Assembly: GCA_964430355.1 (NCBI GenBank)
Contig: CAYSFW010000005.1
Coordinates: 13,177-77,176 of the forward strand
Direction: 5' to 3'
Length of the DNA stretch: 64,000 nucleotides
Source of the DNA: an uncultured Thiotrichales bacterium
Lineage (GTDB): Bacteria; Pseudomonadota; Gammaproteobacteria; UWMA-0217
This document shows positions 9,844-51,441 of the stretch, one piece after another; the stretch's first letter is position 1, and each line of letters starts with the position of its first letter. The position numbers and the translations under genes are program-made. Under the pieces are notes generated by a model, which saw nothing but the letters and a program-made list of their open reading frames with translations, made no database searches and was not told the DNA's origin.

Positions 9844-9844
9844 T

Positions 9845-10789: not shown

Positions 10790-10793
10790 GCGT

Positions 10794-34100: not shown

Positions 34101-34376
34101 AGCGATGTTGGAAACCACGCGCACCGCCTTGCCGGCCTCCTCGTCGAAATACGTCGCCTCGGCGACGTTGATGATCTGCGTGCCGGCCGGTGTCGCCGCC
34201 AGGACGCGGAGCGGGAGTAGCACGAGGGACAGAAACGCGCAGAGCACCCAGAGCCAGCAGGCTTTGGGCGCTCGGGAAATGCGGACGTTCCGGTCCGCGA
34301 TGTTCACCGTCCCTGGTTGCAATGCTCCTCCCGTGCCGGTTTCGACCGCGGGTTTGGCTGGCCGCCGGAGAACCAC
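28155..34376 (-). CDS. giant (about 2070 aa) DUF11-repeat surface protein with carboxypeptidase-regulatory-like domain and C-terminal beta-barrel-like region
   Basis: N-terminal 'TPAGTQIINVAEATYFDEEAG' DUF11 signature shared with the next gene. 'GATVYFHTADG' CarbPepD_reg-like motif. The last ~750 aa show alternating amphipathic beta-strand periodicity. Start may be an internal GTG. Confidence 0.7.
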   Translation of the reverse strand: MVLRRPAKPAVETGTGGALQPGTVNIADRNVRISRAPKACWLWVLCAFLSLVLLPLRVLAATPAGTQIINVAEATYFDEEAGKAVRVVSNIASVVVGQGFAVALHNPRTLNVRAGQTVNLGHRLVNTGNVADSFQLTAANLTGDDADFLDIRVIEDRNGNGVADPGEPRVSQTAPLPPGGALDLVVTGTVPGSAGASHRLALRLTAQSQAHAEALAEVTDTASLLADTAFLDLKLTASSPCEFPLERGAELRYTLEFTNIGDRPPPPRVILVDGAARQGALVTATLSPYAALLKPQPSFFRHAPVQGVTLVHRSQDPADVWHTLAQWNGTDRLARIGLLVPPEHLRPNQSGALAWAMRVDRAPYADERLQSVAEADLDGDGRAEFQSNPVCNAVNGPPPTAKIRFLQPVAALRRTTAAPDFWRDADFEDARQYRIASGETTYNALRDGIYIEVQMESFRPIAQWADGKPTVIRVRLESTGTGDWIDVVMLETQPFSGVYRSIEPVVTSDRLRGNGSVCPARAARLAPDATPLPSYTATPDGACVLLTRGNDTLRVTFRESRLGPVLLDAAVVDPLGTVFDSQSGQPVAGATVYFHTADGAPAHDPDAGEAESAASTTRADGQFRFPRLGSGAYYLRVEPPPSHDFPSTVAPDALRAQFGRQVGAYSYGRDGPPGGGASSVFQLDADGDLPRIDVPLDPAVTGNLTVEKRASRPAVGLADVVAYEVVVSNRSTQALRDVRLRDQPPYGFKYVERSARWDGKPIDGPLRFTPELEFALGTLAPGARTTVSYALRTSAGAVDGDGLNRASAEGRTASDRTLRSTEARVKVQVRPEGVLSDNAIVFGKVYLDADCNRIQSRGEWPIGGVKLYLENGSFAITDEHGQYSLYGLKPGLHAIKVDPLTLIEGLRLKPLGNRHLADGDSRLLDLVPGEFHRADFAAACPPSDQVDRVLAQIKARNALLNGAWALDEAARLAPEPGANLAGDRTQRDRNRLGTVGSADGDLSQGILNGSRSQRDPRQAQTAPRPPDARPSAPSPQPANTREPPEPQPPKASEIVKSVTRAQAKAAEWLWPPGELSDDGRLMIVLPANIEPRLTVNGEEVPRSQLGEQIVNKAEQAQVLAWYGVNLREGENAVEVVATDPFGNRRVLTQRALRRPGVAERIELKPERDTLEADGGRSTLPVRVRLLDRFGQPAHGVYFVTLQASDGQWVEPDIQDREPGHQIRIRGGERTVHLRSSEFTGQLTIRAAEGRLREEVRLTQVAPMRPLVAIGVVDGTVRRNALDTRIEAPTRQREGLADGTRAQGRSAVFMKGRVRGDLHLTLSYDTDKRGEETLLRDIDPAETYPILGDASVRGYEAQSRSKLYAKLERGKHSLMWGDFLTDAQTPLSNVARTQYTLTGANALFDTGGTRLQALRAETEALRFTEELRGNGTAMFYRLSRAPIVQNSEVIELIVRGRDNPGLILSAETLTRFGDYQLDHLTGNLTFFRTIPAFDEERNPMFLRVTYDLAGKGAPYTVTGWRLVQRICKGLTAGVSHTNNAHPTEGSKLTGSFVEYRSDDDRTRIAASVGRMTQDTNGSEGKAWDVQLEQRWNADARTQVKAARAEAGFNNPGSGVLAGREEARLAHSQRLNERQILTVEGTHSRALSGERDSRSAVGALIDTTLPKAGVKLRVGVRQIAQEHKEEREHFSTFVLGVSKGFELLGRQGTVGVEFERAFADAERKRVLLSGEVKVLPKASVYADFEHIDSLAGVAGVSDTESRRTLSAGVKTDLLPGTQLYSEYRVRGVTDGRDFATANGVRGNFEPVPNLTVVPRVEVVDTLRTEGKGSAELADGVATSIAIKDARDPNRRLTAQIETRQADASDYYGVRGSFATRLDRDWSGMVREQLTLQVPDEGARKYRSELAIGVTRRPKLDNRYHLLVMYKWIEEFFGMDANKRHVHLFATHHNYELSSALTLFGRLGHKHVTSELADGLETTGDAWLLDGRVTWDVDRRWDIDLRAGLLATDGGKSLRHAAGFGVHYLLNRNLRVGSAYNLAGFRDRELDPQGYNARGFQLDFQFKFDEDLLGWLSDAH

Positions 34377-34571: not shown

Positions 34572-37496
34572 CTACTGCACACGTACACAGAACGCACCGG
34601 TCGCTTCGTCCCCGGCAGCCACGTCGCCTGCCGAGAAGGTGACGTTGGATCCCGACACACTGCCCTTGTCCGCATCGGCCGCGTCAGTCACCGCAGCGAG
34701 GGTGCAGCCGAGGTGTTCGCAGTACCGGAGCCTGCCGGCTTCGAGGGTGGTGAAGGCCGGCGCCTGGTCCTGGATCGTCACGTTCCTCGCGACGGTAGCC
34801 CCTTCGTTAACGGCCCGAAGCTGCCAAACGATGCACTCGTCCGGCTTGACCCGGGTCGATGGCATCTCGCTGAAGCTCGTTGCCGTGCAGGCGCAGGTGG
34901 CATCGACGGCGGCCTTCTTGTAGAGCCGAACCTGGCTGGTGATGACCTCGCTCAGGTCGGCCACGCTCGAGGCGCCGCAGCTGTCAGAATCTGCGTCGGT
35001 GGCACTGACCGTGCTGGTGTCGACCAGACCGGCCGTCGCGCTGGAGGGTGCAAATACACGCAGCTTCATGGGTAGCGAGTAACCCGGCGGCAGGGTAATG
35101 GTCGGTCCCGCACCGAGAGTCACCGCCACGGCTGCACCGCTGCCGTTGAGCGCATACACGGTGCTGCCCCCGCTGAGCGTCGACCAGGGCGCGAGCGTGG
35201 TCATCCCGGCGTTGGTGTAGAGCTCGAGCTGGCCAGCCCAGCTCTGCGAGCTTCCGAGCGTGAGGCCGAAGGTCTGCGGCTTGTTGCCGGCGTTGGTCAG
35301 GGTGTGCAGGTAGTCTACCGTGCCACCCGGCTGGATCTGGTTCTGCCCCGGCGGAGTCAGGGCGACCGAGCACAGGCCGGCGACATCCACCGCATCGTGC
35401 ACCACGTCGCTCGCACCGGTTGCGGAGGACACGGCGCGGAAGAACAGCAGGTAGTCGTTGTCCCCGTCGGCGTTGCCGTCCACTGTGCTGTTGCCGTTCG
35501 CGAGCGCGAGCACCGGGTCATTGGGGATCCTGACCTCGGCCTTCAGCCACATGACCGCGCCGCCGGGCAGCACGGGCGTGCTGGTGATCGCGGCGTTGGT
35601 TGCAGCGATGTCGAAGCTGCCATTGCCGTCGCTGTCGATGCCATGGTGGCGGAATATGACCTGCCAGCCGGCGTGCAGCGCCCCGAGCGTCGTACCGTCC
35701 CAACTACCGCCTGCATACAGCGCGTAGGCATCAGGACTACCCGCCTCGTTGGCGACGTAGAGGTCGAAGGTCACGGTGGCACCGACGTTACCGGTCTGGG
35801 TCTGGGTCGGGTTGCCGGCGCTGTAGGCGTGGATGTCCGTGCCCGTGCCGAGGCCGGTGGCGGTGTTGGCAATATCGACCGCCGTGCCGGCGATGCTCGT
35901 CAGAACCTCGAGAACGGTGTCGCTCGCGGGTGTGGCAGCGGGATCACCGGCGGACGTTGCCTTGGCCGTGGCAACGAAGGGCCCGGCCCCGCTTGCGCCG
36001 GAGGGCAGCTTGGCCTTGATCACCAGCGAGTAGCTCGCGCCCGGCGCGACCGGTCCCGTGTCGACCACGCCATCACCGTTGGTATCCGTGAGCTGGACCG
36101 CTCCTGTTGAGTCCCACACCGAGAACATAGTCCCAGCCGGGAATGCCACTGCACCACCGGGCACCGTGCCACTGCCCACGTAACTCGCGCCCGCATCGTT
36201 GCTCACGGTGATGTTGAAGGTATCGTTTCCGTTTGCGCCGTTCACGACAACGTGACTGAACAACACGAAGGCGCCCGCCGACGCGGTGTCGACGATCTGC
36301 TCGTCGTCCAGCGTCGCGTCGTCGTCGCCGCCGTTGTTCACGCCGGCGCCGGCGTTGGTGCCGGTGTCCCGGAACGTCAAACCGAAGGCGGAGGTCAGCG
36401 GAACGATGACCTTGTTTGAGCGGGTCGCGGGGGTGTTGGTGCCATCAGCGTAAGCGACGTTAGCGATGACGTCATCGGCGATCTGGCCGTTGCCGTTGCG
36501 ATCGAGGGCGGTGCTCGTGGGCGAGTAGCTCACGGTAAAGCTCATTGTCACGGTGTTGTTGGGAGGTAGCGCGGCGTCCGTGCCGGTCACCGTGTAAAAC
36601 CCGGAAGTCGTCAAAGCGCCGTCACCGTCTACGTCCTTGCCGAGCGTCGCCTCGCTGGTGGTAGAGCCGGAAACGGCGGGCAGGGTGTCGCCGTTGCCCA
36701 CGAGCAGACCGGAGGCACTTGCCGAGGAGAACGTCGTGCCGACCGGCACCCAGTCGAGGATTTCGACGTCGGTGGCGGTCTGTCCGCCCACGTTCTTGAC
36801 CGTCACGGTGTAGGTGACGGTGTGCGCGGCCGTGTCGTGCGTCGCGCTCTTCGTGACCACCAGTACGGGGCCGTTGGTCACGGTGACCACCCCTTGTACG
36901 GCGCCCTCGGCGGCGTCCAGGCCGTTGCCCGTGGAGAGATCATCCACGGTGATGTGCGTCGAAGAGACAGCGAGGTTGACGGCGATGACCTGGCTCGCCG
37001 AGGCCGTGCCGGGGACTTCTGCCGCGACGACGACGCTTTCCCGTTGGGAGGCCAGCACGGTCAGGGCGCCGGTGATCTGCGGCTCACCCGGGTCCGGCTG
37101 GCCGTTGCCGTTGAGGTCGTGGTAGATCGCGAGCGACGAAGCATCCTGGTTGTCGCCATAGGTGCCAGTGCCGACGTTGCTGGCGGTCAAGGTGTAGCTG
37201 TCGGTCGCGTTGCCGGTGTTGCTGAGCACGAAGGGCAGGTAGACGGTCTGGCCCGGTGCGGCCTCCAGCGCCACATCGCGTTCGATGGTCGCAGCGTAGA
37301 CCTCGGCAACCGTAACGATGGCCTCGTTGGACTGCGCGGAGTAGGTGTTGCCAGCCTCGTCCTGGTAAGTCACGGTGGCCAGGTTCTTGATCTGGGTGCC
37401 CGCCGGGGTCATGCCCCAGGCAACGCCCGCGACCAGCAGGGCGAGCAGGGCAGCGCCCCTGCACAGCCACGGTTTTGTCCTCTTGCGCGTGTTCAC
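34572..37496 (-). CDS. DUF11-repeat secreted/surface protein (974 aa)
   Basis: Signal peptide followed by 'TPAGTQIKNLATVTYQDEAGN', then multiple T/V/G-rich Ig-like repeats ('VTYTVTVKNVGG'). Confidence 0.7.
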   Translation of the reverse strand: MNTRKRTKPWLCRGAALLALLVAGVAWGMTPAGTQIKNLATVTYQDEAGNTYSAQSNEAIVTVAEVYAATIERDVALEAAPGQTVYLPFVLSNTGNATDSYTLTASNVGTGTYGDNQDASSLAIYHDLNGNGQPDPGEPQITGALTVLASQRESVVVAAEVPGTASASQVIAVNLAVSSTHITVDDLSTGNGLDAAEGAVQGVVTVTNGPVLVVTKSATHDTAAHTVTYTVTVKNVGGQTATDVEILDWVPVGTTFSSASASGLLVGNGDTLPAVSGSTTSEATLGKDVDGDGALTTSGFYTVTGTDAALPPNNTVTMSFTVSYSPTSTALDRNGNGQIADDVIANVAYADGTNTPATRSNKVIVPLTSAFGLTFRDTGTNAGAGVNNGGDDDATLDDEQIVDTASAGAFVLFSHVVVNGANGNDTFNITVSNDAGASYVGSGTVPGGAVAFPAGTMFSVWDSTGAVQLTDTNGDGVVDTGPVAPGASYSLVIKAKLPSGASGAGPFVATAKATSAGDPAATPASDTVLEVLTSIAGTAVDIANTATGLGTGTDIHAYSAGNPTQTQTGNVGATVTFDLYVANEAGSPDAYALYAGGSWDGTTLGALHAGWQVIFRHHGIDSDGNGSFDIAATNAAITSTPVLPGGAVMWLKAEVRIPNDPVLALANGNSTVDGNADGDNDYLLFFRAVSSATGASDVVHDAVDVAGLCSVALTPPGQNQIQPGGTVDYLHTLTNAGNKPQTFGLTLGSSQSWAGQLELYTNAGMTTLAPWSTLSGGSTVYALNGSGAAVAVTLGAGPTITLPPGYSLPMKLRVFAPSSATAGLVDTSTVSATDADSDSCGASSVADLSEVITSQVRLYKKAAVDATCACTATSFSEMPSTRVKPDECIVWQLRAVNEGATVARNVTIQDQAPAFTTLEAGRLRYCEHLGCTLAAVTDAADADKGSVSGSNVTFSAGDVAAGDEATGAFCVRVQ

Positions 37497-38500: not shown

Positions 38501-39331
38501 ATGAGCAAACGGGCGCTTTGCATCGGCATTAATGACTATCCAGGCACCGCGAACGATCTCGCCGGTTGCGTGAATGACGCGCGCGACTGGGCGGATGTGC
38601 TGGATAAGCGGGGGTTCTCCGTCACGACGCTGCTCGACGGCGCCGCGACCAAGGCGGGTATGGTCGCGGCGATCCAGGATCTGATCGGTAGTGCAGTGCG
38701 GGGCGACAGCCTCGTGATCACCTATTCCGGTCACGGCACCTTCGTGCCCGATGCCAGCGGCGACGAGCCCGACGGGCAGGATGAGGGCCTGTGCCCCTAT
38801 GACATCGGCCAAGGCGCAGTGCTGCTCGATGACGAGATCCACGCGTTATTTGCCGCCCGCGGCCCGGGCGTGAAGATCGTGCTGATCTCGGACAGCTGCC
38901 ACTCGGGCACCGTTATCCGCTGGGGCGGACCCGATCCGGACAGCGATGCGCCCCGTGCGCGGTTTCTGCCGCCCGCTGCCTGGATGCCGGCGGAGCGCCT
39001 GCCGAGGAGTGCCTCGGGCGGTAGCCTAACGCGGGTACATCCCGGGCGCCCGGTGCAGAGCGCCTGGACCAACGCGCTGTCACTCGGGGAGGGTGATCTG
39101 CTCATGGCCGGCTGCCGGGATACCGAGTACAGCTACGACGCGCGCTTTGCGGGCCGCCCGAACGGGGCGTTCACCTACTACGCGCTGAAGACCCTCAGGA
39201 CGCTGCCAGCCGGTGCGACCTACGGCAATTGGTACACCGCCATCCGCAACTACCTGCCGGCGGCCAGTTACCCGCAAACGCCGCAGATCCTGGGCGGCAA
39301 GGCGCAGCGGCGCTTCAAGGTCCTGGCGTAA
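38501..39331 (+). CDS. caspase-like peptidase, MEROPS C14 (metacaspase/orthocaspase)
   Basis: 'ALCIGINDYPG...LAGCVNDA', catalytic His in 'YSGHG' and catalytic Cys in 'DSCHSG'. Confidence 0.8.
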   Translation: MSKRALCIGINDYPGTANDLAGCVNDARDWADVLDKRGFSVTTLLDGAATKAGMVAAIQDLIGSAVRGDSLVITYSGHGTFVPDASGDEPDGQDEGLCPYDIGQGAVLLDDEIHALFAARGPGVKIVLISDSCHSGTVIRWGGPDPDSDAPRARFLPPAAWMPAERLPRSASGGSLTRVHPGRPVQSAWTNALSLGEGDLLMAGCRDTEYSYDARFAGRPNGAFTYYALKTLRTLPAGATYGNWYTAIRNYLPAASYPQTPQILGGKAQRRFKVLA

Positions 39332-39470
39332 GCACCAGCCGGCAGTGCGTCCGTCCCGCACCGGGCGGACCCGTACCTGGCCCCTCTGCCGCGGGTGACG
39401 CGGCGGGTCCCGTGGGGGCCAGTAGGCTCTGTGGCCGGATCACAGATCGATAGACCCATCGGAACCTCGA

Positions 39471-42400
39471 ATGGCAACAACACGTTCCCCCGTCCGCTTG
39501 CAAATCCAGGGCGTTGCCCTCGCGGCCGGGACGCTGCCCAGCCTTCTGCAGGCGGGAAGCCGCTCGGTGAGCGACGCGGACAATCGATTCCTCCCGCCTG
39601 GCTTCGTGCAATCCACACAGGCCTATGACCTGTCGCGCTCAGCGCGCGCGACGGTGGTGCAGGCAGCACACCCCGACGTAGAGCCCGACGCAGTCCTGTC
39701 GCTCGAGCTCGAGGAGGGCGTCACCGTCTTCGTGCGTGCGGATCAGTTCCGTGAGGACCTCGAGCGCAGCGACCCGGATGCCATTCGCGACGGCGAGGTG
39801 ATCCTCGACGAGGCGGTGCGCGATCGCGGCGTGAGCCAGCGCGGGCTGTTCGGCGACGTCGTCAGGCATGTGTTCGTGCTCAAGCTGGGCACTGATGAGA
39901 TCATCGCCGACGCGAAGGCGCAGCTCCTGGAATGGCTCGGTGAGCAGGCCGGCGCGGAGCTCGGCCGCCTGGGTGTCTCCTGGTGGGGCACCAAGGCGCT
40001 AATGTGGGCGATCGAACGCCAGCTCGGCCACGAGCCTGGCCTGTACCGATGGGGAGATGACGGAGCCTTGCGGGAGCGCCTCACCGAGGGGGACGCACGG
40101 CTCGCGCAGGCGGCGCAGCAGGGGCCGCTGCTCGTGTTCATCCACGGCACGGGCTCGAGTGCGGCAGGGAGCTTTGGTGATCTGCGCAGTGCGGACGCCG
40201 CCGCCGACTGGCGCGCGCTCGAGGCCCGGTATGGCGACCGGATCTATGCCTTCGAGCATCGCACCTTGTCGGAAAGCCCTGTGGAGAACGCGCTTGCCTT
40301 GGCGCGCGTGTTGCCCGCTGGGGCGCGCCTGCATCTCGTCACGCACTCCCGCGGTGGGCTGGTGGGCGACTTGCTGGGCCTCGACGGGCTGGATGCGGAA
40401 GCGCTGCAGGGTTTCAAGCGCCGGAAGCTGGGTGATCCCGAGCTCGATGCCGAGCTGGAGCGCGCCGATGCGGCGGACCGGGAGCGCCTGCGCGAGCTCG
40501 CGGCGGTGCTCGCGCTGCGCCGGTTCCACATCGAGCGGTACGTGCGCGTGGCCTGTCCGGCACGCGGCACGCGGCTGGCGAGCGCCAATTTCGACGTGTT
40601 CATGTCGGGTTTGCTGTCGCTGATTGGCCTGGTGCCGACGCTGGCAGGAAGCCCGTTCTACGCCGCGTTCAAGCGTGTGGTGCTGGAGGTGGCGCGCAAC
40701 CGAACCCGGCCCGAGTGCGTCCCGGGTATCGAGGCGATGTTGCCGGACGCACCACTCGGACGGCTGCTGCTCGCGGCGCGGCCCGTCAAGGATCTACGGC
40801 TAGCAGTGATCGCGGGCGACATCGAGGGCGGGGGGCTCCTCAAGCGGCTCGGTGTGCTGTTCACGGACTACGTGTTTTTCGACGCGGTCAACAACGACCT
40901 CGTGGTCGACACCGACTCGATGTATGCCGGCCTTGCGCGGCCTGGCGCCGCCCGCCAACGCTTCGAGCAGGGCGCGGACGTGAGCCACTTCCGCTACTTC
41001 GCCAACCGCGGCTCGCGCGCGGCGCTACGCCAGTGGCTCACGGCCCCGGAGCCCGATGCGCTGGCCGAATTCGAACCGCTGGCGCCGGGCTTCGACGAGC
41101 CGAAGGTCGGCGCGGAGCCGGTCGCGGGCGCGCCCGCCCGCGGCGGCGCGGCCGACCGGCCGATCGTCGTGCTGCTCCCCGGGATCATGGGCTCCCACCT
41201 CACCGCCGACGGCGGCCGGGACCGCATCTGGTTCGACCCGCTCGACATCGCCGCGGGCAAGATCGAGCGGCTGCGCTGGGGCTCAGGCGGCATCGCGGCC
41301 GAGCGCCCGTTCGACCTGTTCTACGGCGATCTGATGCGGTACCTGGCCAGGTCGCAGCGCGTGGAACCGTTCGCCTACGACTGGCGCCAGCCGCTCGAGG
41401 TGCTCGGCGAGGCGCTGGCGGCGCGCGTGCGGGACTGGCTTGCTCAGACCGCCCAGCCCATCCGCTTCCTCGCCCACAACATGGGCGGTCTGGTGGTGCG
41501 GGCGATGATCGCGCGGCATCCCGACCTCTGGGATGAGGTCATGGCCCGCGACGGCGCGCGGTTCGTGATGCTCGGCACCCCCAACCGCGGCTCGCATAGG
41601 ATGGTCGAGACGCTGCTCGGCAAGTCCGAGCTAATCCGGCGGCTCGCGCGCATCGATCTCGGGCATAGCCTGCACCTGCAGGAGCTGCTGGACCTCGTCG
41701 CGGCGTTTCCGGGCGCGCTGCAGCTCCTGCCGCAGCCCGGCTTCGTGGACGAATCGGGCGAGGCCGGGGCGGACTACTATGCCGAACCGGTGTGGCACGA
41801 ACTCAAGGCGGCGTGCCGCGACCTGTGGTTTGGGGACCGCGTTGCCGCCACGCCGGCGCAGGCGGCCCTCGACGCAGTGCACGCCCAGTGGGACGAGCCG
41901 AATTTCAAGGCTGCTCGCCTGCCCGAGCGCCACCGGCAGCGCACGATCTATGTTTATGGGATGGCTGACAACACGCCCTGCGGTCTCTCCCGTCGCGGTG
42001 GCGTGGTGAAGATGCTCGGCACCCCACGAGGCGATGGCGCGGTGACCTGGAAGTCTGGCGCGCTCGAGGGCGTCGGGGCGTACTACTACATGCCTGTGCC
42101 ACACGGCGAATTGCCGGACACGCCGGCCTACTTCCCCGCGCTCGAGGCACTGCTCGAGCGCGGTGCGACTGACGCTCTGCCGACCGCGGCACCCACCCTG
42201 CGCGGTGTCGCACCGGTTCGGTCCTACGACGCCGGACCGACACCGTATCCCACCGCCGAGGAGGTCGCGCGCGGCCTGCTCGACGCCCGTCCGCGCACGC
42301 GCGCGCGCCGGCGGGCCGTGCCCACCCTGGCCGTGCAGTGCACGGCGATGGATCTGCGCTGCGTCACGCAGCCGATCATGGTCGGACACTACGAGCAGGA

Positions 42401-45215
42401 CACCATCGCGGGCGCCGAGGCGCTGATCGACCGCGAGCTCGTCAATCACGAGCTGACTCTGCGCAAACACCTGGGGCTCTATCCCGAGGCCATTGGCACG
42501 GCCACTGTCGTGCTGCAGGCTCGCAACGAGCAGGAGCAGCGTCGGGGGAGTTACCGCGGCGCGGTGGTGATCGGGTTGGGCAAGCTCGGTGAGCTGACCG
42601 GCGCGGGCCTCACCGAGGCGGTGCGCACCGGGACGCTGCGCTACCTGCTACAACTCACCGACATCCGGGCCGGGCGCGGCGAGGCGCACGATGCGGACAT
42701 CTGCCTCGCGAGCCTACTGGTGGGCTCCAATTCCACGACGAACCTCACCATTGAGGATTCCGTCAGCGCCATCGTGCGCGGGGTGCTGGAGGCCAACCGC
42801 CAGTTCGTGGAGACCATGACGCCGGCATCACCCACGCCGCCACGCGTCACGCGCCTGCAATTCGTGGAAATCTTCCTCGAGAACGCGATCGCTGCAGCCA
42901 AGGCCATCCGTACGCTGGCTGCCCAGATCAACGAGCGCGACAGTGCGCGCTACGGTATGCGCGTGGAGGCCGCAAGCGAGCTCTGTCAGGGCGACGGCAT
43001 GCGCCAGCGTCTGGACGTGGGCGGGGTGCAGTCGTTTTGGCCGCGGCTGATCATTGCCGATGCCGATCGCGAGCCCGACGACGAGACCCCGCGCGACGCC
43101 CAACAGCCGGCCACGCGGCTGCGTTTCGTCTTCCTCGGCCAGCGGGCCAGGGCCGAGATGGTGGTGCATCAACGCCAGCCAGGGCTCGTGGAAAAACTCG
43201 TCGACAAGTCGGTGAACCAGCCGCGGTTTCGCAAGGAGCTGTCGCGCTCGCTGTTCCAGCTCATGGTGCCCAACGACTTCAAGGACGCCGCGCGGCAGGT
43301 CGAGCGCATGATGCTGGTGGTCGATGGCTACACCGCCAACCTGCCCTGGGAGCTGATGCTGGCCGATGACCAACCGCTCGCCGTCCAGACCGCGTTGGTG
43401 CGCCAGCTTCGCTCGACGCGGTTCCGTCAGCGCGTCCGCACCACCCTGGATGCGCTCGCCTATGTAGTGGGCAACCCCTCAACGCAGGGCTTTGCCGCCA
43501 GCTTTCCCCGCGCCTCGCGCGACCCGGAGCCGCTCGCCGGCGCCGAGGAGGAGGCCTGCGCGGTGCGCAGCCTGCTTGCCCAGCAGGGCTTTCAGGTCAC
43601 CGAGGCGATTGGCAGGGATCAGGAGGCGCTCGACGTCATTAACAAGCTCTACCTGCAGCCGTATCGCATCATCCACATCGCCGCGCATGGCGTGTACGCA
43701 GAGCCCGACGGCCACGGTCTCGCGCGCAGCGGCGTGGTGCTCTCCGATGGCCTGCTGCTCGGCGCTGCGGAGATCGGACAGATGGAGGTGGTGCCCGATC
43801 TCGTGTTCCTCAACTGCTGCCACCTCGGCAAAACGGACACCTTGCCAGTGGCGTTCAACCGGCTGGCCTACAGTGTGGCGCGCGAGCTTATCGAGATCGG
43901 CGTGCGCGCCGTGGTGGTGGCCGGCTGGGCGGTGGATGACCAGGCCGCGCGCCTGTTCGCGGAGACCTTCTACGGCGCGCTGATCGGCGGCGACCGGCCC
44001 TTTGGCGAGGCGGTGTTCACGGCGCGCAAGAAGGTTTATGAGCGTTATCCGGAGAGCAATACCTGGGGCGCCTACCAGGCTTATGGCGACCCGGGATTCC
44101 TCATCCGTCCGGGTGTGGTGCGGGCGAACGGCGGCGCATCCGCCGCCTGGCAGCCGGTGACCATTGAGGAGCTGATCGAGCGGCTGACGGCGGCGCGCAA
44201 TGACATCCGGCGCATGGCCAAAGCACTCGATACGCGCGAGGCCCGGCGGCGGGCCGCCGAGTGTGGGCGCCTGCTCAAGGCTTGCCCGGCGCGCTGGTTG
44301 TCGGCGCCGTCGGTTAACGCGGAGCTCGGCCGATACTTCGCCGAGCTCGGCCCAGCCTATTTCGGCAAGGCGCGCAGGCATCTGGAACAGGCCGTTCAGG
44401 CCGAAGACCGGCTGGCCCGGGTACCCATCACCGCGCTCGAGCTACTCGCGAACCTGGAGGCGCGACAAGGCGAGATCGACGCCGATCTGCCGCTCGTCGA
44501 TCGTGCGATCCAGCGTCTCCTCGCCCTCGTGGAAGGGACGGGCGCCGGCACCGTCAATCCGGAGCGTTGCGCGTTGCTCGGCAGCGCCTACAAGCGGCGC
44601 GCGGTCGTGCTCGCGCGCGGCGAGGCGGGCGCGAACGGCTCGCGCAAGCTGCGCGGGCAGGTCAGTGAGGCGTTGAGCGCCAGCATCACGTGGTACCAGC
44701 GTGCCGAGGGCGCGCCTGGCGAGGGTAACTTCCGGCCTTACCATGCGCTCAACCGTCTGGCGCTGCAGGCCGTGGTTGATTTCGAGCGGCCGGAGGTGGA
44801 CGGCGATCGGGTCGCGCTGGCGCGATTTTGCGCTGAGGCGGCGACTGAGCGCTTCCGCCGTGAGCCCAATTTCTGGGATGCGATCGGCGTCGCCGATGCC
44901 CAACTCACCCAAAGCCTGCTCGACCGGACGCTGGAAGACCCGGGTGCGCCCGGCGATCTCGCGCTCGAGACGGTGCGGCGTGCCTATCGGGAAGGGCTCG
45001 TGGGCACCCTCGTCCAGCCGAAGCATCTCGATTCGGTCGTCGCGCAGATCCGTCAGATAGCCGAGCTGTACCGCGCACTCGTGAAGTTCGCGCAGCGCGA
45101 CCGGCGCGAGGCCGCACAGCGCACGGCGCTGAGACTCGACACGCTGGCCGGTGATCTGGCTCCTCGGGTCGCTCAACCGCCGTTGCTGGCAGAGTCGCAG
45201 GACGCGGAACGTTGA
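39471..45215 (+). CDS. 1914-aa multidomain protein: unknown N-terminal domain + two lipase-like alpha/beta-hydrolase domains + CHAT (caspase-like) protease + helical/TPR-like C-terminus
   Basis: Hydrolase 1 '[11 protein letters not shown]...[10 protein letters not shown]' (intact GxSxG). Hydrolase 2 '[11 protein letters not shown]...[10 protein letters not shown]' (Asn in the nucleophile position). CHAT 'RIIHIAAHG' plus '[10 protein letters not shown]'. Confidence 0.8.
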
Positions 45216-45308
45216 GGTGGGGCAGCCGCCGTGGCGAAGCCGTGCGCCGGTTGATGCGCTGCCTAGGATTTGGGTTCGCGATGTCCGCAGAGATGGCGAA
45301 GCTCGTCT

Positions 45309-45330
45309 GCCCTCGCGGGCCCGCGAGGGC
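45309..45330 (+). other. perfect 22-bp GC palindrome/hairpin between the CHAT gene and the GH19 gene
   Basis: GCCCTCGCGG-GC-CCGCGAGGGC. It lies 94 nt after the CHAT gene stop and 46 nt before the GH19 GTG. No U-tract. Confidence 0.35.
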
Positions 45331-45375
45331 CGCAGATCCCGTTCGTTGATCTCATCGCTGTCGGAGGAGGATGAC

Positions 45376-46041
45376 GTGCAGTTCGATCGCAAGCAGTTTT
45401 TCGATGCCTACCGGGGCGTGTTTGGTCGGCTCAGCCAGAAGCAGGTGGTGGGTCTGGGCTTTCTGCTCGAGTCGCTGGAGGCGGACGCTCGCGTCACCGA
45501 CCTACGCTGGATGGCCTACATGCTCGCCACCGTGAAACACGAATGCGCCGACACCTGGCGGCCGATCGAGGAATACGGCAAGGGCAGGGACTGGCCCTAC
45601 GGGAAGCGGGTCAAGGTGCAAAGGCCGGACGGCAGCAGCGCGTTCGTCGCCTACTACGGGCGGGGCTACGTGCAACTGACCTGGCCCGAGAATTACTCAC
45701 GGCTCGGCCAGGCGCTCGGCCTGGGCGAAACACTCGCGCTCTATCCCGAGCGCGCGCTCGAGCCGCAGATCGCCTACCGCATCATGTCCTACGGGATGCG
45801 GCGTGGTGCGTTCACCGCGAGGAAACTCGCCGACTACATCAACGATGCCGACTGTGACTACAAGAACGCCCGCCGCATCATCAACGGCCTGGATCAGGCA
45901 AGCCTGATCCAGGGCTACGCCGAGAATTTTGAGCGTTTCCTCGGCTTGAGCCGCATCGATGCGCCTCCGCGCAGCCCCTACGTACCGGTGCTCAAGCCGC
46001 GGGGGCTCGATCTGCCGGAGCCGGAGCCCGAGACCGATTGA
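45376..46041 (+). CDS. GH19-like peptidoglycan hydrolase (COG3179 'predicted chitinase'/phage-type lysozyme), no signal peptide
   Basis: 'ATVKHECAD' and 'YYGRGYVQLTWPENY' GH19 catalytic signatures. GTG start with a strong SD GGAGGAGG 5 nt upstream. Confidence 0.7.
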   Translation: MQFDRKQFFDAYRGVFGRLSQKQVVGLGFLLESLEADARVTDLRWMAYMLATVKHECADTWRPIEEYGKGRDWPYGKRVKVQRPDGSSAFVAYYGRGYVQLTWPENYSRLGQALGLGETLALYPERALEPQIAYRIMSYGMRRGAFTARKLADYINDADCDYKNARRIINGLDQASLIQGYAENFERFLGLSRIDAPPRSPYVPVLKPRGLDLPEPEPETD

Positions 46042-46303
46042 GTGTGTGCCCGGCGCGTAACTGCCGGCGGGCAGTCGATCCACCGCGTAGGGCTCTGCCG
46101 CAAACGCACCGGGCTCGGTGAGCTGGGCAGCTACAGCTTCCTGCCAAACCGTGCGTGGAGCGCCCACGGGGGCGCTTCCATGCTCAACAGGAAAATCCCG
46201 ATTCATTCGTTGCCCCTCGACGCGAAGGGTAGCGAGGGGACTCATTCAGGGCATCCAAAGGCATCGCGTGGCCAGCGCCGTCCCCACCACGACGAGGGAT
46301 TTT

Positions 46304-47536
46304 TCAAAGCAGGGCTGATTCGATCTTCCCGCGCAGCCGCTCGATGCGGCGCAGGGTTTGCGGGGAGCGATCCAGACGCGCACCGAGCGAGAGCGCTGTA
46401 GCGTAGTCCTTAAGGTGATGCTCGTGGTATTTCGCGAGGTGCTCCAGCGAGGTCTGACAGCCCTCGGCTGCGAGCCGGTGCCAGATCGCAACGGCGGCTC
46501 GCCAGTCACCCGCGCGACGGTGCAAGCGCGCGAGCAGGCCAAGGGCGCGTGCATCGAGTGCCTGCGCGCGGCTGGCGAGCAAGGAACGAGCGCGTTCCGG
46601 GTCACTGCCGCTGATCCAGGACGCAAGGGCGTGCAGATCGAGATCGGGGTGCGTGGGGGCTCTGCAGGCGTGACCCAAGGCAACGTGAGACGCCGCCAGC
46701 GACACAAGATCCTCGCAGTTGTGCTGGGTGACCTGCACGAGCCGATCTATAGCACCGAGGTTCAACCAATCGAACCAGGCCTGCGGCACTTCGGACCCCG
46801 GCAGATCGTCACGGCGGCGGTAGCCGAGCAGGCGGGCTTCGACGCTCGTCAATCGACAGTCGGGCCAGCTCGCGGCAAACAGCCTGCGCATTGGGTGCAG
46901 CAGGTCGAGATGCCCGAGTGCGGGTAGGGGATCGCGCAGGCCGTGCATGCGCAAGCGCGTGGCGAGCAGCGGGGCATCGAAGCTCCGACCGTTGTAGGTC
47001 ACGAGGTGGTCCGCTGGTTCGAGCGCGCTGGTGAGCTCGGCGAGCAGGGTGGCCTCACCGACGAAGCGGGTGAGCAGCCATTGCGTGACCCGCAGCCGTT
47101 CGCCTCGCACGCGCGCCAGCCCGACAAGGAAGGCGAGGGTGCCGCTGCCGCCGCTGAGTCCCGTGGTTTCGGTGTCGAGGTAGACGTGTTGCTCGGGCTT
47201 GATGTCTGGCCCGCCCGGCAGCGGCACGGGATGCCGGAGGTTGGCCAGCGGGATCCCGCCCCGCTGACTGTCGAGCGGAACGTCGCGTTCAATGCGAATG
47301 AGACCGTCGGCGATGAGTTCACCACCCGCGCGCGCGGCGAGTTCCGCGGATGTCGCACGCGCCGTGCTGGCGGGCGCAAGGCCGCGGGCGCGCGCGCCCG
47401 ACAGTCGGGCGAGCCGGTCGCGGAGGGTGCTCGTGGGGTTGCCGCTGGCCTGCGCATCGGGCGGGGATGCGCCCGGCGCCGGCGGTCGCGCGCCGGCCTG
47501 CCTTTGTAGCTCAGCGAGTCTATCGCGCAGGTTCAT
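46304..47536 (-). CDS. YprB/MrfB-like RNase H-fold exonuclease with C-terminal TPR
   Basis: 'VYLDTETTGLS' and 'LVTYNGRSFD' DEDD/RNaseH-like exonuclease motifs. Overlaps the upstream helicase stop. Confidence 0.7.
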   Translation of the reverse strand: MNLRDRLAELQRQAGARPPAPGASPPDAQASGNPTSTLRDRLARLSGARARGLAPASTARATSAELAARAGGELIADGLIRIERDVPLDSQRGGIPLANLRHPVPLPGGPDIKPEQHVYLDTETTGLSGGSGTLAFLVGLARVRGERLRVTQWLLTRFVGEATLLAELTSALEPADHLVTYNGRSFDAPLLATRLRMHGLRDPLPALGHLDLLHPMRRLFAASWPDCRLTSVEARLLGYRRRDDLPGSEVPQAWFDWLNLGAIDRLVQVTQHNCEDLVSLAASHVALGHACRAPTHPDLDLHALASWISGSDPERARSLLASRAQALDARALGLLARLHRRAGDWRAAVAIWHRLAAEGCQTSLEHLAKYHEHHLKDYATALSLGARLDRSPQTLRRIERLRGKIESALL

Positions 47537-49953
47537 GGCGTTGGCGTCGCGTCGGTCAGCAGGCCCAGCACGGTGAGTGCTGCGGCCCTCGGCGAGTAGC
47601 CACGGTCGGCATCCGAGGCGAGGATGGGGCCGATGCAGCTGGGGCAGCCGTCCTCGCACTCGCAGCGCTCGATGAGGCGCAGGGCGTCCATGACGATGCG
47701 GGCACGCTGTTCGTACAGCGGCTCGCTGAGGCCGATGCCGCCGGGATAGTTGTCGTAGAGGAACAGCGTCGGCACGAACTGTGCGAGCGCCGCGGGATCG
47801 ACGGCTTGCCCGTCCATACCTCGCATCTGCCCGCGCCCTTGGCTGCCAGTAGTCGCGAACCAGGTCGCGTTACCGTCGCCCACGGCGCGGCCCAGATCCC
47901 GGGGTTCGGCGAGCATGCGCATCGCGGCGACGTGGTGCATGGCATAGGCCGCGCCGAGAAAGCCGTCGAGTGCCTGCTGCCGACTGGGGAAGGCGCAGTC
48001 GAGCGCGCCGGGCTCGACCTGCCACCACACCGCGGTGGTGTGCATCTCCTGGTCGGGCAGGTGGATGTCGCCGTAGCCGATGTTCTCGTGGGTGTAGTAA
48101 CGGATCTTCTTGTACCCGGCGATGCGGCGCACGAGATGCACCTCGCCGTGCGCGCTTGCCTGCGTCGCCCCGGGGACATGTGCGAAGGACTCGAGGATCT
48201 TGAGCTTCGTGTAGTCGATGGCGTCGGTGTAGTAGTCGGCGCGGGTGCGGGTGACGAAGGCCTTGCGCCCGGTCCAGTCGAGCCGTTCCACCTGCCAGGG
48301 TTGGGCCTGGATCATGTAGATTGCGCCTTCGTAGAGCGTCATCGGTGCGGCGCTGTAGTCCACCTCGGCGATGATCTTCTGCTGGCCGTCCGTCGTGTCC
48401 ATCACCACGAAATTCCCCTCGGCGACGGAACGCAGGCTGACGGCATTGGCTGGATAGCTGTCCGCCGACCAGTGCCACTGGGCACCCTCGCGGTGCAGCA
48501 CGCCAGCTTCCTCAAGATAGGCCAGCAGGTCCGGGAGGCTCGGGGCGTTGCCGAAGCGCTCGCCGTCGCGGAACGGCAGTTCGAAGGCCGCGCAGCGCAC
48601 GTGGTCGAGCAGGATCAGGAGTTGATCCGGGTCGATGCGTGCCGTCTCCGGCGAGGCGCCGAGGAAGAACTCCGGGTTGCGTACGATGTACTGATCGAGC
48701 GGCTGCGAGGTGGCGACCAGTACGCCGAGCGACGTGCGCTGCCTTCGCCCCGCGCGGCCCAGGCGCTGCCAGGTCGCCGCGATGGTGCCGGGATAGCCGT
48801 TCAACACGCAGACATCGAGCGCGCCGATGTCCACCCCGAGTTCGAGCGCGGAGGTGCTCACCACGCAGTCGATCTGACCCTCGCGCAGCTTGCGTTCCAT
48901 CGCACGGCGCTCGGTCGGCAGGTACCCGCCCCGGTAGGCGGCGATGCGGGCCGGCTTGCGGGGGTCGTGGTCGAACACGTCCTTCAGGTACTTCGTCAGC
49001 ACCTCGACCATCAGCCGCGACTGGGCGAACAGGATGCTTTGCAGGCCGAGCTTGACCGCCAGGCGGGCGATGCGCGTGGTCTGCGAGCGGGCCGAGGCGC
49101 GGATGCCGAGATCGGGATTGATCACCGGCGGGTTCCACAGCAGCAGGTGCTTCGCGCCCTGCGGCGCGCCGCTCTCGGTGATCGCGCGCACCGGGGCCTC
49201 GATGAGGCGGCTCGCGAGTTCCGCCGGGTTGGCAATCGTTGCCGAACACAGGATGAATTGCGGGGAGGTGCCGTAGAACCGGCAAATGCGCTGCAAGCGC
49301 CGCAGCACGTTCGCCACGTGGGCGCCGAACACGCCGCGGTAGGTGTGCATCTCGTCAATCACCACGTAACACAGCGACTCGAAGAACTGCGCCCACTTGG
49401 TGTGGTGCGGCAGGATGCCCTGATGCAGCATGTCCGGGTTGGAGACCACGATATCGCCGCGGGTGCGCACCGCCTTGCGCGCATCGCCCGGGGTGTCGCC
49501 GTCGAAGGTAAAGGCGCGCACGCCGAGGCGGCCCGCCTCATTGAGCTCGAGCAACTCGGCGACCTGATCCTGCGCGAGCGCCTTGGTGGGAAACAGGTAC
49601 AGCGCCTTGGCCTGCTCGCGCATCGCGGCCTGCAGCACGGGCAGGTTGTAGCAGAGCGTCTTGCCTGAGGCCGTGGGGGTGACGATGACGACGTGCTCGC
49701 CGCCGTGCACGGCCTCCCACGCCTGGGCCTGGTGTGAGTAGAGCCGGGCGATGCCGCGTGCCTGCAACGCCCCGGCGAGCCGGTCGTCCAGGTCCGCCGG
49801 GAGGGGCGCGAACCGTGCGGCGCGCGCCGGAATCTGCAGTTCACCCGTGATATGCGACTTGTATTTCTTACGCAGACGATCGGCCAGCTCTGCAACGGGG
49901 TCTGACGGGCCCTCGGCGACGGTGCGCAGCGCTGCGGTCATGGCGTTCTCCAT
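47533..49953 (-). CDS. DEAD/DEAH-box helicase with C-terminal DUF1998 zinc domain (MrfA/YprA-like)
   Basis: 'TPTASGKT' Walker A, 'VIDEMH' box and C-terminal 'CECEDGCPSC' zinc cluster. Start taken at MENAM. Confidence 0.85.
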   Translation of the reverse strand: MENAMTAALRTVAEGPSDPVAELADRLRKKYKSHITGELQIPARAARFAPLPADLDDRLAGALQARGIARLYSHQAQAWEAVHGGEHVVIVTPTASGKTLCYNLPVLQAAMREQAKALYLFPTKALAQDQVAELLELNEAGRLGVRAFTFDGDTPGDARKAVRTRGDIVVSNPDMLHQGILPHHTKWAQFFESLCYVVIDEMHTYRGVFGAHVANVLRRLQRICRFYGTSPQFILCSATIANPAELASRLIEAPVRAITESGAPQGAKHLLLWNPPVINPDLGIRASARSQTTRIARLAVKLGLQSILFAQSRLMVEVLTKYLKDVFDHDPRKPARIAAYRGGYLPTERRAMERKLREGQIDCVVSTSALELGVDIGALDVCVLNGYPGTIAATWQRLGRAGRRQRTSLGVLVATSQPLDQYIVRNPEFFLGASPETARIDPDQLLILLDHVRCAAFELPFRDGERFGNAPSLPDLLAYLEEAGVLHREGAQWHWSADSYPANAVSLRSVAEGNFVVMDTTDGQQKIIAEVDYSAAPMTLYEGAIYMIQAQPWQVERLDWTGRKAFVTRTRADYYTDAIDYTKLKILESFAHVPGATQASAHGEVHLVRRIAGYKKIRYYTHENIGYGDIHLPDQEMHTTAVWWQVEPGALDCAFPSRQQALDGFLGAAYAMHHVAAMRMLAEPRDLGRAVGDGNATWFATTGSQGRGQMRGMDGQAVDPAALAQFVPTLFLYDNYPGGIGLSEPLYEQRARIVMDALRLIERCECEDGCPSCIGPILASDADRGYSPRAAALTVLGLLTDATPTP

Positions 49954-49986
49954 TCGTTCTCCTGCTAGACTATAGAGAACGAATGG
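49950..49986. promoter_or_regulatory. 37-bp element: 12-bp perfect inverted repeat CCATTCGTTCTC-N13-GAGAACGAATGG spanning the divergent mrfA/lexA starts
   Basis: Read directly. It contains GTTC/GAAC half-sites and an adjacent GAAC-N7-GAAC direct repeat (49977-49991). It overlaps the mrfA ATG and ends 14 nt before the lexA ATG. Confidence 0.5.
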
Positions 49987-49999
49987 AGAACGGGCAACC

Positions 50000-50602
50000 A
50001 TGCAACTGACGCGGCGGCAACGCGAAATCCTCGACTGGCTGCGGGCTCACGCCGACGCCTTCGCGCAGCCGCCCACGCTGGATGAACTCTGTCAGGCGCT
50101 GGGGATGGCCTCGCGCGGCTCCCTGCACAAGCATATCCAGGCGCTGGTGGAGGCGGGGCTCGTCGAACCGCTGGAGGGCAAGCGGCGCGGCGTGCGGCTG
50201 CGGGAGGAGAGCGATGCACCAGAGCCCGGGATTCCGCTCCTTGGGAGCATCGCCGCAGGGCGGCCCATCGAAGCGGTTCCGCAGCCCGTTTATATGCCGG
50301 TGCCGCCGGAGCTTCTGACCGGGGGTGACTGTTACGTGCTCAAGGTGCGCGGGGATTCGATGATCGACGAGGGCATCCTCGACGGTGACTGGGTGGTGAT
50401 CGAACGACGCGATCACGCGCGCAACGGCGAGATCGTCGTTGCCCTCGTGCGCGAGGCCGAGGCCACCCTCAAGCGCATCGAGCAGCGGCCGGGCGAGGTG
50501 CTGCTGCACGCGGCAAACCCGGCGATGCCGACGCTGCGCTACCACCCGGACGAAGTCCGCATCCAGGGCGTGCTGGTCGGCTTGATGCGCCGCTACCGAT
50601 GA
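50000..50602 (+). CDS. lexA: LexA repressor
   Basis: Winged-HTH N-terminus, 'AAG' cleavage site, 'GDSM' Ser nucleophile and 'ATLKR' Lys. Confidence 0.9.
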   Translation: MQLTRRQREILDWLRAHADAFAQPPTLDELCQALGMASRGSLHKHIQALVEAGLVEPLEGKRRGVRLREESDAPEPGIPLLGSIAAGRPIEAVPQPVYMPVPPELLTGGDCYVLKVRGDSMIDEGILDGDWVVIERRDHARNGEIVVALVREAEATLKRIEQRPGEVLLHAANPAMPTLRYHPDEVRIQGVLVGLMRRYR

Positions 50603-50651
50603 AGGCAGCATTTTGCGCGCGCGGTACTCTCGGTTGGCAACCACTGGCCGT

Positions 50652-51242
50652 ATGATCGCAGGTCCCACGCAAACCCGGGCGATTGACGCCATGCCGCTGT
50701 CCGACCTCTATCTCGATCTCAAGGATCTGCTGTTCCCGACCCGGGTCGAGCAGGTGTCGCCACGCTCCGAAGGGCAATTCGTCCGCGGCATCAACCTCGG
50801 CGGCGACGCAGTCACCATCGACGGCCTCCGCTGGGAGGGCTACCGGCAGGCCCTCGGCAACGGCTTGGCCACCCCCGGTGCCACTGCCGCGCGGACGTCC
50901 GTCAAGCCCGAGCCCTACCTGGGCGGGGATCTGCGACGCATGTTCAATACCGTCGTCTACCGCCCGCGAACGCTCGATCTGTCGGTCAGCCTTGGCAACG
51001 GCGCGTACAAAGTCTACCTGTGGGTCATGGAAAACCACCAATCCGGCTGGCACGGCATGGAGCTGCGCATCGACGGCAAGCCGGTTGATCGTGAAATCGG
51101 CCGTCTGCCGCTGGGCGGCTGGAAGAATTACGGACCCTATCCCGCTGAGGTGGGCGGCGGTGAGCTTTCCATCACGCTCGACACCGGCAGCGACCAGGTC
51201 GACGCGCACCTGATGGGCCTGAGCATCTACCGCATGCGCTGA
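50652..51242 (+). CDS. hypothetical protein, apparently co-transcribed with lexA
   Basis: ORF opens 11 nt after the lexA stop at a TTG (50613). ATG candidates at 50652 and 50691. No recognisable motif. Confidence 0.4.
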   Translation: MIAGPTQTRAIDAMPLSDLYLDLKDLLFPTRVEQVSPRSEGQFVRGINLGGDAVTIDGLRWEGYRQALGNGLATPGATAARTSVKPEPYLGGDLRRMFNTVVYRPRTLDLSVSLGNGAYKVYLWVMENHQSGWHGMELRIDGKPVDREIGRLPLGGWKNYGPYPAEVGGGELSITLDTGSDQVDAHLMGLSIYRMR

Positions 51243-51353
51243 GTCATTCCGCACATGGAGGAATTGGCGTCACGCTTCTCGCCATCCACACAGACCTTAC
51301 GGCGGCGCAGCGCTGGCAACCCGTCGCCACGCTGGGTACAATCGGCGACTCAC

Positions 51354-51441
51354 GGAGAGGTGGCTGAGCGGTCGAAAGCGGCGGTCTTGAAAACCGTTGA
51401 AGGGCAACCTTCCGGGGGTTCGAATCCCTCCCTCTCCGCCA
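51354..51441 (+). tRNA. tRNA-Ser (anticodon UGA), CCA encoded
   Basis: GGAGAGG acceptor stem pairs with CCTCTCC+G+CCA. Anticodon loop cTTGAaa. Long variable arm and GTTCGAATCC T-loop. Confidence 0.9.

Follow-up and report, generated by a model that had tools for sequence, protein, structure and literature searches.

Three co-oriented genes in the window

The window analysed here is a stretch of 64,000 nucleotides from an uncultured Thiotrichales bacterium (contig CAYSFW010000005.1), and the locus in question occupies 38.5-46.0 kb of it. Three co-oriented open reading frames (ORFs) are found there, with the same limits as in an earlier reading made from the sequence alone (the sequence-only reading), which had joined all three into a candidate programmed-lysis or anti-phage module. 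Gene 1 (positions 38501..39331, + strand) codes for a stand-alone metacaspase-like (orthocaspase) protease of 276 amino acids, matched by Pfam Peptidase_C14. Gene 2 (39471..45215, + strand) codes for a giant multidomain protein of 1914 amino acids, which comprises an N-terminal domain, two hydrolase domains, a macro-like domain, a CHAT domain and a TPR-S region. Gene 3 (45376..46041, + strand) codes for a GH19 endolysin-type peptidoglycan hydrolase of 221 amino acids and is an adjacent gene outside the conserved module. The guanine-plus-cytosine (GC) content of the window is about 66%, and that of the locus is not atypical. We have high confidence that genes 1 and 2 form a conserved pair and that the GH19 gene is unrelated to it.

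The start codon of gene 1 is an ATG, with GGGAGGTGGG just before it. Its product matches Pfam PF00656 (E = 9e-25, 88 bits vs. a cut-off of 21.4) over positions 2-225 of the 233 of the profile, and its nearest solved structures in the PDB are GSU0716 (5e-34) and metacaspases. PADLOC (PADLOC-DB 2.0) recognised it by the generic "caspase" model alone (2.6e-14). The catalytic dyad consists of His78 in the motif YSGHG and Cys133 in the motif DSCHSG, and both motifs are kept in all 57 aligned adjacent caspases (the window and 56 of the homologous loci described below). The call of a canonical C14 caspase-like peptidase is thus borne out by Pfam, by the PDB relatives and by the conserved His/Cys motifs. 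In addition, Asp131 stands two residues ahead of Cys133, as in Arg/Lys-specific metacaspases, and the gene 1 product is probably Arg/Lys-specific as well.

The caspase gene and the giant gene are conserved as a pair

More than 1300 proteins of 1900-2100 amino acids match the giant protein over its full length, at about 50% identity, and gene 2 is therefore to be taken as a conserved gene and not as a chance ORF. The family amounts to about 1500 clusters at 50% identity. From a survey with one genome per species, at least 546 species-level genomes were found to carry the giant protein, i.e. about 0.3% of species genomes, patchily distributed across phyla, and 80 loci were retained. The hosts of these loci are Burkholderiales, Rhodocyclales (Accumulibacter, Aromatoleum, Zoogloea), Thiotrichales, Chromatiaceae, Cyanobium/Synechococcus, Desulfobacteraceae, Gemmatimonadales and Devosia. 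This patchy spread across phyla, at 40-57% identity, fits with horizontal transfer.

In 74 loci the upstream flank is at least 1.1 kb long, and in 57 of these the giant gene is directly preceded by a co-oriented caspase gene, at a distance of 27-478 nt. The paired loci span Burkholderiales, Rhodocyclales, Thiotrichales, Cyanobium/Synechococcus, Desulfobacteraceae and Gemmatimonadales. The adjacent caspases belong to two lineages, with 44 sequences at 50-70% identity to gene 1 and 13 at about 34%. The second lineage fills the upstream slot (about positions 7000-7900) in one clade of Burkholderiales, with an intact dyad (loci L015, L025, L027, L031, L040, L045, L056, L061, L065, L072 and others), which looks like an in-place replacement of the partner protease. 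Moreover, each caspase lineage follows particular clades of the giant protein. In the main caspase lineage (41 loci), the pairwise distances of caspases and giant proteins are strongly correlated (r = 0.88), and none of 2000 permutations reached the value observed for the overall caspase-giant correlation. When the 4911 ORFs of 81 loci were clustered all against all, the caspase was the only conserved neighbour to emerge. The idea that the caspase and the CHAT-lipase giant protein work together is therefore strengthened, both by their adjacency in several phyla and by the correlation of their distances.

The loci without an adjacent caspase fall into a Rhizobacter/Piscinibacter-like clade and a Thiothrix clade. 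Their upstream genes are unrelated (an HNH and a glycine-zipper protein, a SIR2_2 protein, an aldolase), and both the SIR2_2 protein (L011) and the HNH proteins occur only sporadically near the giant gene. In the 73 loci whose upstream neighbours were compared, these neighbours are varied (gyrA, FtsH, QueC, RlpA and others). No relative of the giant family was found in IMG/VR viral contigs, and a viral origin of the family was rejected.

On the downstream side, a second, larger protein of 640-940 amino acids, with a caspase domain and a long extension, was observed in Cyanobium/Synechococcus and in one Desulfobacteraceae locus (L002 15507-17441, L005 14178-16190, L006 15586-17664 and L064 14186-16273, + strand; L024 16870-19701, - strand). 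Three of 68 downstream neighbours match TPR-S, so that this repeat family seems to be found repeatedly together with proteases of the caspase fold.

The GH19 gene lies outside the conserved pair

Gene 3 starts with a GTG at 45376, 6 nt past its own Shine-Dalgarno sequence (GGAGGAGG), and its product has neither a hydrophobic N-terminus nor a signal peptide. Its match to Pfam GH19 is below threshold (E = 0.002, 18.4 vs. 25.5 bits). The protein also matches the PHROG endolysin family 181 (E = 1e-25), and in comparison with the GH19 chitinases of the PDB (chitinase C, 4e-5) the HE and the second catalytic Glu are aligned. With GH19 endolysins from 307 phage records it shares 42-47% identity. These PHROG, PDB and phage matches confirm the description of gene 3 as a GH19 hydrolase, and the Shine-Dalgarno sequence of its own and the lack of a signal peptide were confirmed as well. 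More than 3500 cellular homologues were found, mostly solitary proteins of about 200 amino acids, some of them fused to PG_binding_1 or SH3, and the nearest named ones belong to Acidobacteriota and Gemmatimonadota. Gene 3 has no match in PADLOC.

The sequence-only reading had made this hydrolase the third component of the module, and this part of it did not survive the comparison of loci. A tblastn search of the 80 homologous loci with gene 3 gave a single weak match, in L054, at 4 kb upstream and never downstream. The order giant gene-GH19-exonuclease recurs in one contig only, about 90% identical in DNA and for that reason too close to be informative. In 68 loci, the genes immediately downstream of the giant gene encode methyltransferases, molybdopterin oxidoreductases and other unrelated, mostly housekeeping functions, and no cell-wall hydrolase is among the 25 most frequent Pfam families of these 68 neighbours. 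Where GH19 homologues occur elsewhere, they lie in housekeeping neighbourhoods with no CHAT protein. Non-conservation of the trio in homologous loci was the refuting condition set by the sequence-only reading itself, and by this condition the trio is refuted and the pair stands; dropping the "final lysis step" narrows the candidate module to two genes.

The layout of the locus points in the same direction. The gap of 160 nt between gene 2 and gene 3 contains a GC-rich perfect hairpin, GCCCTCGCG GGCC CGCGAGGGC, at 45310-45331. This hairpin might be a transcript boundary; it lacks a T-tract, and shuffled sequence folds at least as well as the region as a whole. The gap with its hairpin and the separate Shine-Dalgarno sequence suggest that gene 3 is expressed separately. 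The evidence suggests that gene 3 is an independently transcribed, endolysin-derived cell-wall hydrolase, adjacent to the pair in this lineage only. A possible membership of gene 3 in a prophage lysis cassette, which had been raised as a check on the original proposal, found no support: no small hydrophobic ORF that would resemble a holin or a spanin is present within 45100-46450, and none of the neighbours tested has a lysis or structural PHROG match.

Only one other cell-wall hydrolase was seen right beside a member of the giant family, and it is a single case. In L084 (homologue P0060), the gene just ahead of the giant gene, in divergent orientation, codes for a PF11860 muramidase with PG_binding_1 (8911-9726, - strand). 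This locus has no adjacent caspase, and PF11860 is a different family from the GH19 of gene 3.

Domain architecture of the giant protein

The gene 2 product was modelled as two separate parts, residues 1-945 and 946-1914, with 31 homologues per alignment (predicted local distance difference test score, pLDDT, of 77 and 76, respectively), and the residue census and conservation were based on 74 homologues. All coordinates below are on the + strand. No signal peptide or membrane-spanning segment is evident in the protein. Judged from sequence and models, gene 2 encodes one cytoplasmic polypeptide made of an effector half and a regulatory protease half.

The effector half would consist of the N-terminal domain and two lipase/phospholipase-like hydrolases, the first of which is intact in 72-74 of the 74 homologues. 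Residues 1-215 (39471..40115) are predicted as an alpha+beta domain, mostly with good confidence, which has no Pfam match even at E 5 and shows about 35-50% column conservation. Hydrolase 1 (residues ~216-540, 40116..41090) is a DUF7379 alpha/beta-hydrolase (Pfam, E = 3e-29) whose triad is formed by Ser293 in HSRGG (72 of 74 homologues), Asp476 (74 of 74) and His506 (74 of 74). It holds a large helical insertion, within which lies the hydrophobicity maximum of the whole protein (residues 370-395). Hydrolase 2 (residues ~560-900, 41148..42170) is an LCAT/LPLA2-like alpha/beta-hydrolase, with sub-threshold Pfam matches to LCAT/DUF676 at residues 630-716 and a PDB profile match to LPLA2 (4x90). 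The nearest folds to residues 1-945 (Foldseek, 3e-6 to 3e-4) are LPLA2 (3e-6), LCAT and the family I lipases of Pseudomonas and Burkholderia. In hydrolase 2, the codon where the nucleophile Ser is expected is AAC in the window (41478..41480), which gives Asn670 in the motif AHNMGG. This position is a Ser in 65 of the 74 homologues and a Gly in 8 (mostly Cyanobium/Synechococcus); Asp855 and His878 are retained in the window protein. With Asn in the window and Gly in these eight homologues, hydrolase 2 is probably inactive here and dispensable in some lineages, where one of the two hydrolase domains seems to become a pseudo-enzyme. Thus, of the two lipase-like domains originally described, both folds are present and the second one has lost its nucleophile in the window protein.

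A linker rich in Arg and Lys (residues 922-950, 42234..42320), poorly conserved and predicted as disordered (pLDDT <50 for residues 922-945), separates the hydrolase half from the protease half. Three stand-alone homologues of about 960-1010 amino acids (P0252, P0258 and P0266, in loci L089 and L090) have their Met start exactly at this linker and contain just the macro-like, CHAT and TPR-S half. The two halves are therefore separable modules. No lipase or caspase gene was seen beside these three homologues, which lie on short contigs. The best 150 representatives have either the same architecture as gene 2 or that of stand-alone C-terminal halves, and none of them carries another N-terminal effector on the CHAT-TPR-S core.

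The regulatory half would comprise the macro-like domain, the CHAT protease and the TPR-S repeat. Between the hydrolases and CHAT, structure prediction revealed a macro-domain-like alpha/beta fold (residues 951-1175, 42321..42995), which the sequence-only reading had overlooked. This fold is equally like the non-catalytic N-terminal domain of leucyl aminopeptidases, and it belongs to no sequence family (no Pfam match at E 5). It is followed by a segment of low confidence (residues 1179-1255, 43005..43235, pLDDT <50) that is strongly conserved, includes the near-invariant motif GQRARAE (1223-1229) and may be a processing or regulatory site. The CHAT protease domain (residues 1256-1540, 43236..44090) was also well recognised from the sequence: it matches Pfam PF12770 (E = 1e-31), its dyad is formed by His1406 and Cys1449-Cys1450, and the motifs HIAAHG and FLNCCHLG are invariant in the 74 homologues. 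It resembles SAVED-CHAT. Finally, the long helical tail noted earlier is indeed an all-helical TPR-S repeat region (residues ~1565-1900, 44163..45170; Pfam TPR-S at residues 1632-1765, E = 4e-13), and the C-terminal 350 residues are like the regulatory TPR of ASK1 and the peptide-sensing TPRs of Rap proteins. The least conserved parts of the giant protein include this TPR-S region and the N-terminal ~200 residues.

Comparison with known systems

Only recent work has shown that bacterial immune systems use caspase-family proteases as executioners, namely Craspase, SAVED-CHAT/PCaspase, type IV Thoeris and gasdermin systems. To our knowledge, all of these depend on separate sensing machinery. In bacterial gasdermins and in the CapV-type phospholipases of cyclic-oligonucleotide-based antiphage signalling systems (CBASS), a protease or a signal frees a membrane-damaging effector that kills the infected cell, and the logic of the cassette would be the same. 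However, its effector is LCAT-like or family-I-lipase-like, and not a gasdermin or a patatin, and it is fused to its presumed regulator.

A similar gene organisation is found in the hybrid of type III-B clustered regularly interspaced short palindromic repeats (CRISPR) and CBASS of Haliangium ochraceum, where a sensor-bearing CHAT protein (SAVED-CHAT) stands beside a separate small caspase (PCaspase). In that system, SAVED-CHAT cleaves and activates PCaspase, many proteins are then cut and abortive infection follows (10.1101/2023.06.23.546230). In contrast, the cassette of the window has no SAVED, Cas10, CD-NTase or CRISPR array and is alone among housekeeping genes; its sensor candidates are the C-terminal TPR-S and the macro-like domain, and its CHAT shares one polypeptide with about 940 residues of lipase-like hydrolase. 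Consistently, Pfam gave no SAVED match in gene 2, and no source of cyclic oligonucleotides is present among the conserved neighbours.

Craspase, of type III-E, associates gRAMP/Cas7-11 with TPR-CHAT (Csx29), i.e. TPR and CHAT in one polypeptide as in gene 2, and its protease stays inactive until a sensing event (PMC9729208). However, the TPR is N-terminal in Csx29, whereas gene 2 has a C-terminal repeat of the TPR-S family. The cassette lacks gRAMP and the Csx30/31 substrate genes, and adds the hydrolase and macro-like domains and a partner caspase. PADLOC gave no Cas match for gene 2, and no gRAMP/Cas7-11 was found among the conserved neighbours.

Caspase domains are also recurrently paired with neighbouring alpha/beta-hydrolases in the predicted MoxR-vWA (VMAP) ternary conflict systems (Kaur, Burroughs, Iyer, Aravind; PMC7159879). 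The cassette shows the same pairing of a caspase-superfamily peptidase with alpha/beta-hydrolases, as a fusion plus a neighbouring gene. Unlike in those systems, whose association is computational, the hydrolases are fused to CHAT and a second caspase is encoded by a separate gene. No MoxR, vWA or VMAP gene is found in the flanks of the window or in the recurrent families of the 68 downstream and 73 upstream genes. In type IV Thoeris, a caspase-like protease that is promiscuous and Arg-specific once activated serves as the effector (Rousset et al., 10.1101/2024.10.24.620036). Gene 1 shares the caspase family and, like metacaspases, has an Asp two positions ahead of its catalytic Cys, but the cassette has no TIR gene or known signalling molecule and its protease is paired with CHAT and lipase-like domains. 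As for gene 3, it is like the GH19 endolysins of Acinetobacter and Rhizobium phages (PHROG 181) in its sequence, its pair of Glu and the absence of a signal peptide, but it is solitary, with no holin, spanin or other phage gene nearby.

In the literature searched, no description was found of this architecture (DUF7379, or CHAT with a lipase/phospholipase, in defence), in agreement with the earlier statement that no experimental account of it was known. All parts of the cassette belong to known kinds of prokaryotic conflict systems; what is new here is a self-contained CHAT-caspase pair fused to lipase-like effectors. This combination had been predicted in part by comparative genomics.

Proposed function and alternative explanations

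We propose, with a confidence that is evenly balanced, that the two-gene cassette is a regulated self-destruction or defence module. In this proposal, the TPR-S region, possibly with the macro-like domain, would detect a trigger (a phage component, damage or a nucleotide-type signal) and the CHAT protease would be switched on. CHAT would then process its own polypeptide and/or cleave and activate the neighbouring caspase, as SAVED-CHAT does with PCaspase. The lipase-like half would attack membrane lipids and the caspase, probably Arg/Lys-specific, would degrade proteins, with growth arrest or death of the cell as the outcome. Entire clades have the giant protein with no caspase beside it, and the caspase therefore looks like a downstream amplifier and not an obligate activator. 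The trigger, the order of cleavage, the lipid substrates and the outcome in death or defence are what we infer. The cassette would be a compact, self-contained version of the known immune proteases, with a CHAT-to-caspase pair linked to a lipase-type effector. As its carriers are common in wastewater, freshwater and soil (Accumulibacter, Zoogloea, Thiothrix, Cyanobium and many Burkholderiales), it could have a bearing on phage-host dynamics or on the physiology of cell death.

A stronger version of this proposal, which we regard as possible but doubtful, is a free-standing death machine. Here a sensor (the TPR-S and/or the macro-like domain, with an ADP-ribose-type ligand), the initiator CHAT and the lipase executioner would together drive the neighbouring caspase. 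If true, membrane lipolysis would here be coupled to a caspase cascade in two tiers, independent of any signal generator of the CRISPR, CBASS or TIR kind, and the cassette would define a new and widespread family of anti-phage defence or programmed cell death, present in the 546 or more species genomes of the survey.

Several observations weigh against a role in defence or self-destruction. Gene 2 matches no PADLOC model, Cas models included, and the literature searched holds no experiment on any member of the giant family. The flanks are variable and mostly housekeeping in the window, among the 68 downstream and 73 upstream genes and in three annotated contigs; this Pfam profile of the neighbours gave no support for a defence-island context, which was among the checks attached to the original proposal. 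The clustering of the 81 loci revealed no signal-generating enzyme (TIR, cyclase, CD-NTase) among the conserved neighbours, so that any nucleotide sensing by the macro-like domain would take place with no such partner. The "lipase" call is based on fold and weak profile similarity, and another ester or peptide substrate could fit, and hydrolase 2 is probably inactive in the window protein. The correlation between the caspase and giant-protein distances is partly due to shared organismal ancestry. Finally, the linker was considered as a site of caspase-dependent cleavage: its content in basic residues is the same in loci with and without an adjacent caspase (mean of 6.5 vs. 6.1), a comparison that does not discriminate and gives no support to such a cleavage.

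An alternative explanation is a physiological role, in which the cassette would serve regulated lipid remodelling or protein processing, membrane turnover under stress or starvation, or a developmental or programmed death in bacteria forming flocs or filaments. The proteases would then be devices of maturation or regulation with no part in phage defence. The housekeeping neighbourhoods devoid of mobile-element or defence-island hallmarks, the absence of the giant family from viral contigs and the lipid-metabolic nature of the LCAT/LPLA2-type enzymes all agree with this explanation, as does the enrichment of the hosts in aggregate- or filament-forming genera (Accumulibacter, Zoogloea, Thiothrix, Cyanobium). 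However, a patchy presence across phyla, in about 0.3% of species genomes, is unlike that of a core function, the caspase, CHAT, TPR-S and macro-like domains are all typical of conflict systems, and the sensor-like ends of the protein evolve faster than its enzymatic cores. We consider such a role unlikely on the whole.

The other two alternatives differ in the place that they give to gene 3. In the three-gene lysis module, a caspase/CHAT cascade would activate the lipase, the inner membrane would be breached and the signal-less GH19 hydrolase would degrade the wall. The genes are indeed adjacent and co-oriented, the hydrolase is of the signal-less endolysin type, the gene order is shared by a close relative, and an unrelated peptidoglycan hydrolase lies nearby in two loci, L084 (PF11860) and L054 (a distant GH19-like protein at 4 kb). 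We nevertheless hold this module to be highly improbable. The relative that shares the order is uninformative, a GH19 homologue was found in one of 80 loci and never downstream, the common families of the downstream genes include no cell-wall hydrolase, GH19 homologues elsewhere are solitary among housekeeping genes, and the gap, the hairpin and the Shine-Dalgarno sequence suggest separate expression. Gene 3 could also be left over from the lysis cassette of a prophage or tailocin, the region being a degraded mobile element that abuts the caspase-CHAT pair. This would account for its identity to phage endolysins, for the PHROG match and for its nearest named cellular homologues belonging to other phyla. 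But the vicinity has no holin- or spanin-like ORF, integrase, flanking repeat or other PHROG match, the GC content is not atypical, and many of the more than 3500 cellular homologues stand alone among housekeeping genes or are joined to domains that bind the cell wall. A remnant of this kind is thus improbable; as it concerns gene 3 alone, it would be compatible with a self-destruction or defence module made of genes 1 and 2.

Genomic neighbourhood of the locus

Housekeeping genes of the chromosome make up the flanks of the window, with those for ATP sulfurylase, sulfate permease, glycosyltransferases and a sigma-54 regulator and with a complex-I/Mrp-like cluster. No integrase and no att-like or flanking repeats were found around the three genes in the window, and scans for promoters and terminators and the folding of intergenic RNA gave nothing above chance. 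With no integrase, holin-like ORF or repeats, and with a family absent from IMG/VR, the cassette lies outside any recognisable defence island or prophage.

Directly upstream, on the - strand, two very large proteins of 2073 and 974 amino acids are encoded (28155-34376 and 34572-37496); they carry DUF11, CarboxypepD_reg and SdrD_B repeats and are probably cell-surface or adhesin proteins. Downstream of gene 3 and convergent with it is a pair of genes (46304-47659 and 47533-50001, - strand), one for a helicase and one for an exonuclease. The helicase is of the DEAD/DEAH type with a C-terminal MrfA Zn-binding domain; it matches TIGR03817 (E = 1e-195, under its cut-off), as well as the BrxH and DruE helicase models of PADLOC. 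Its partner is an exonuclease of the RNase_H_2 superfamily, with one weak PHROG match to a phage DNA-polymerase exonuclease family. By its domains, the pair is MrfA/MrfB-like, i.e. a putative helicase-nuclease of DNA repair or defence. As listed, the two ORFs share 127 nt, which makes a more internal start of the exonuclease probable.

Farther downstream, the sole tRNA gene of the window, tRNA-Ser with anticodon TGA (51354-51441, + strand), lies 5 kb from gene 3, between two ORFs (50469-51254 and 51899-52750) with no match in Pfam or PHROG. It is followed by a thioredoxin fused to TPR repeats (52960-53820, - strand) and by an AddA-like UvrD helicase with a C-terminal PD-(D/E)XK nuclease (53994-57458, - strand). 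At the other end of the window, the GC content falls to 0.55-0.59 at positions 6000-12800, vs. about 0.66 for the window. This region codes for complex-I/Mrp-antiporter-like subunits (a 49-kDa/30-kDa fusion, two Proton_antipo_M proteins and NADHdh) and resembles a cluster of the hydrogenase-4 or Mrp type.

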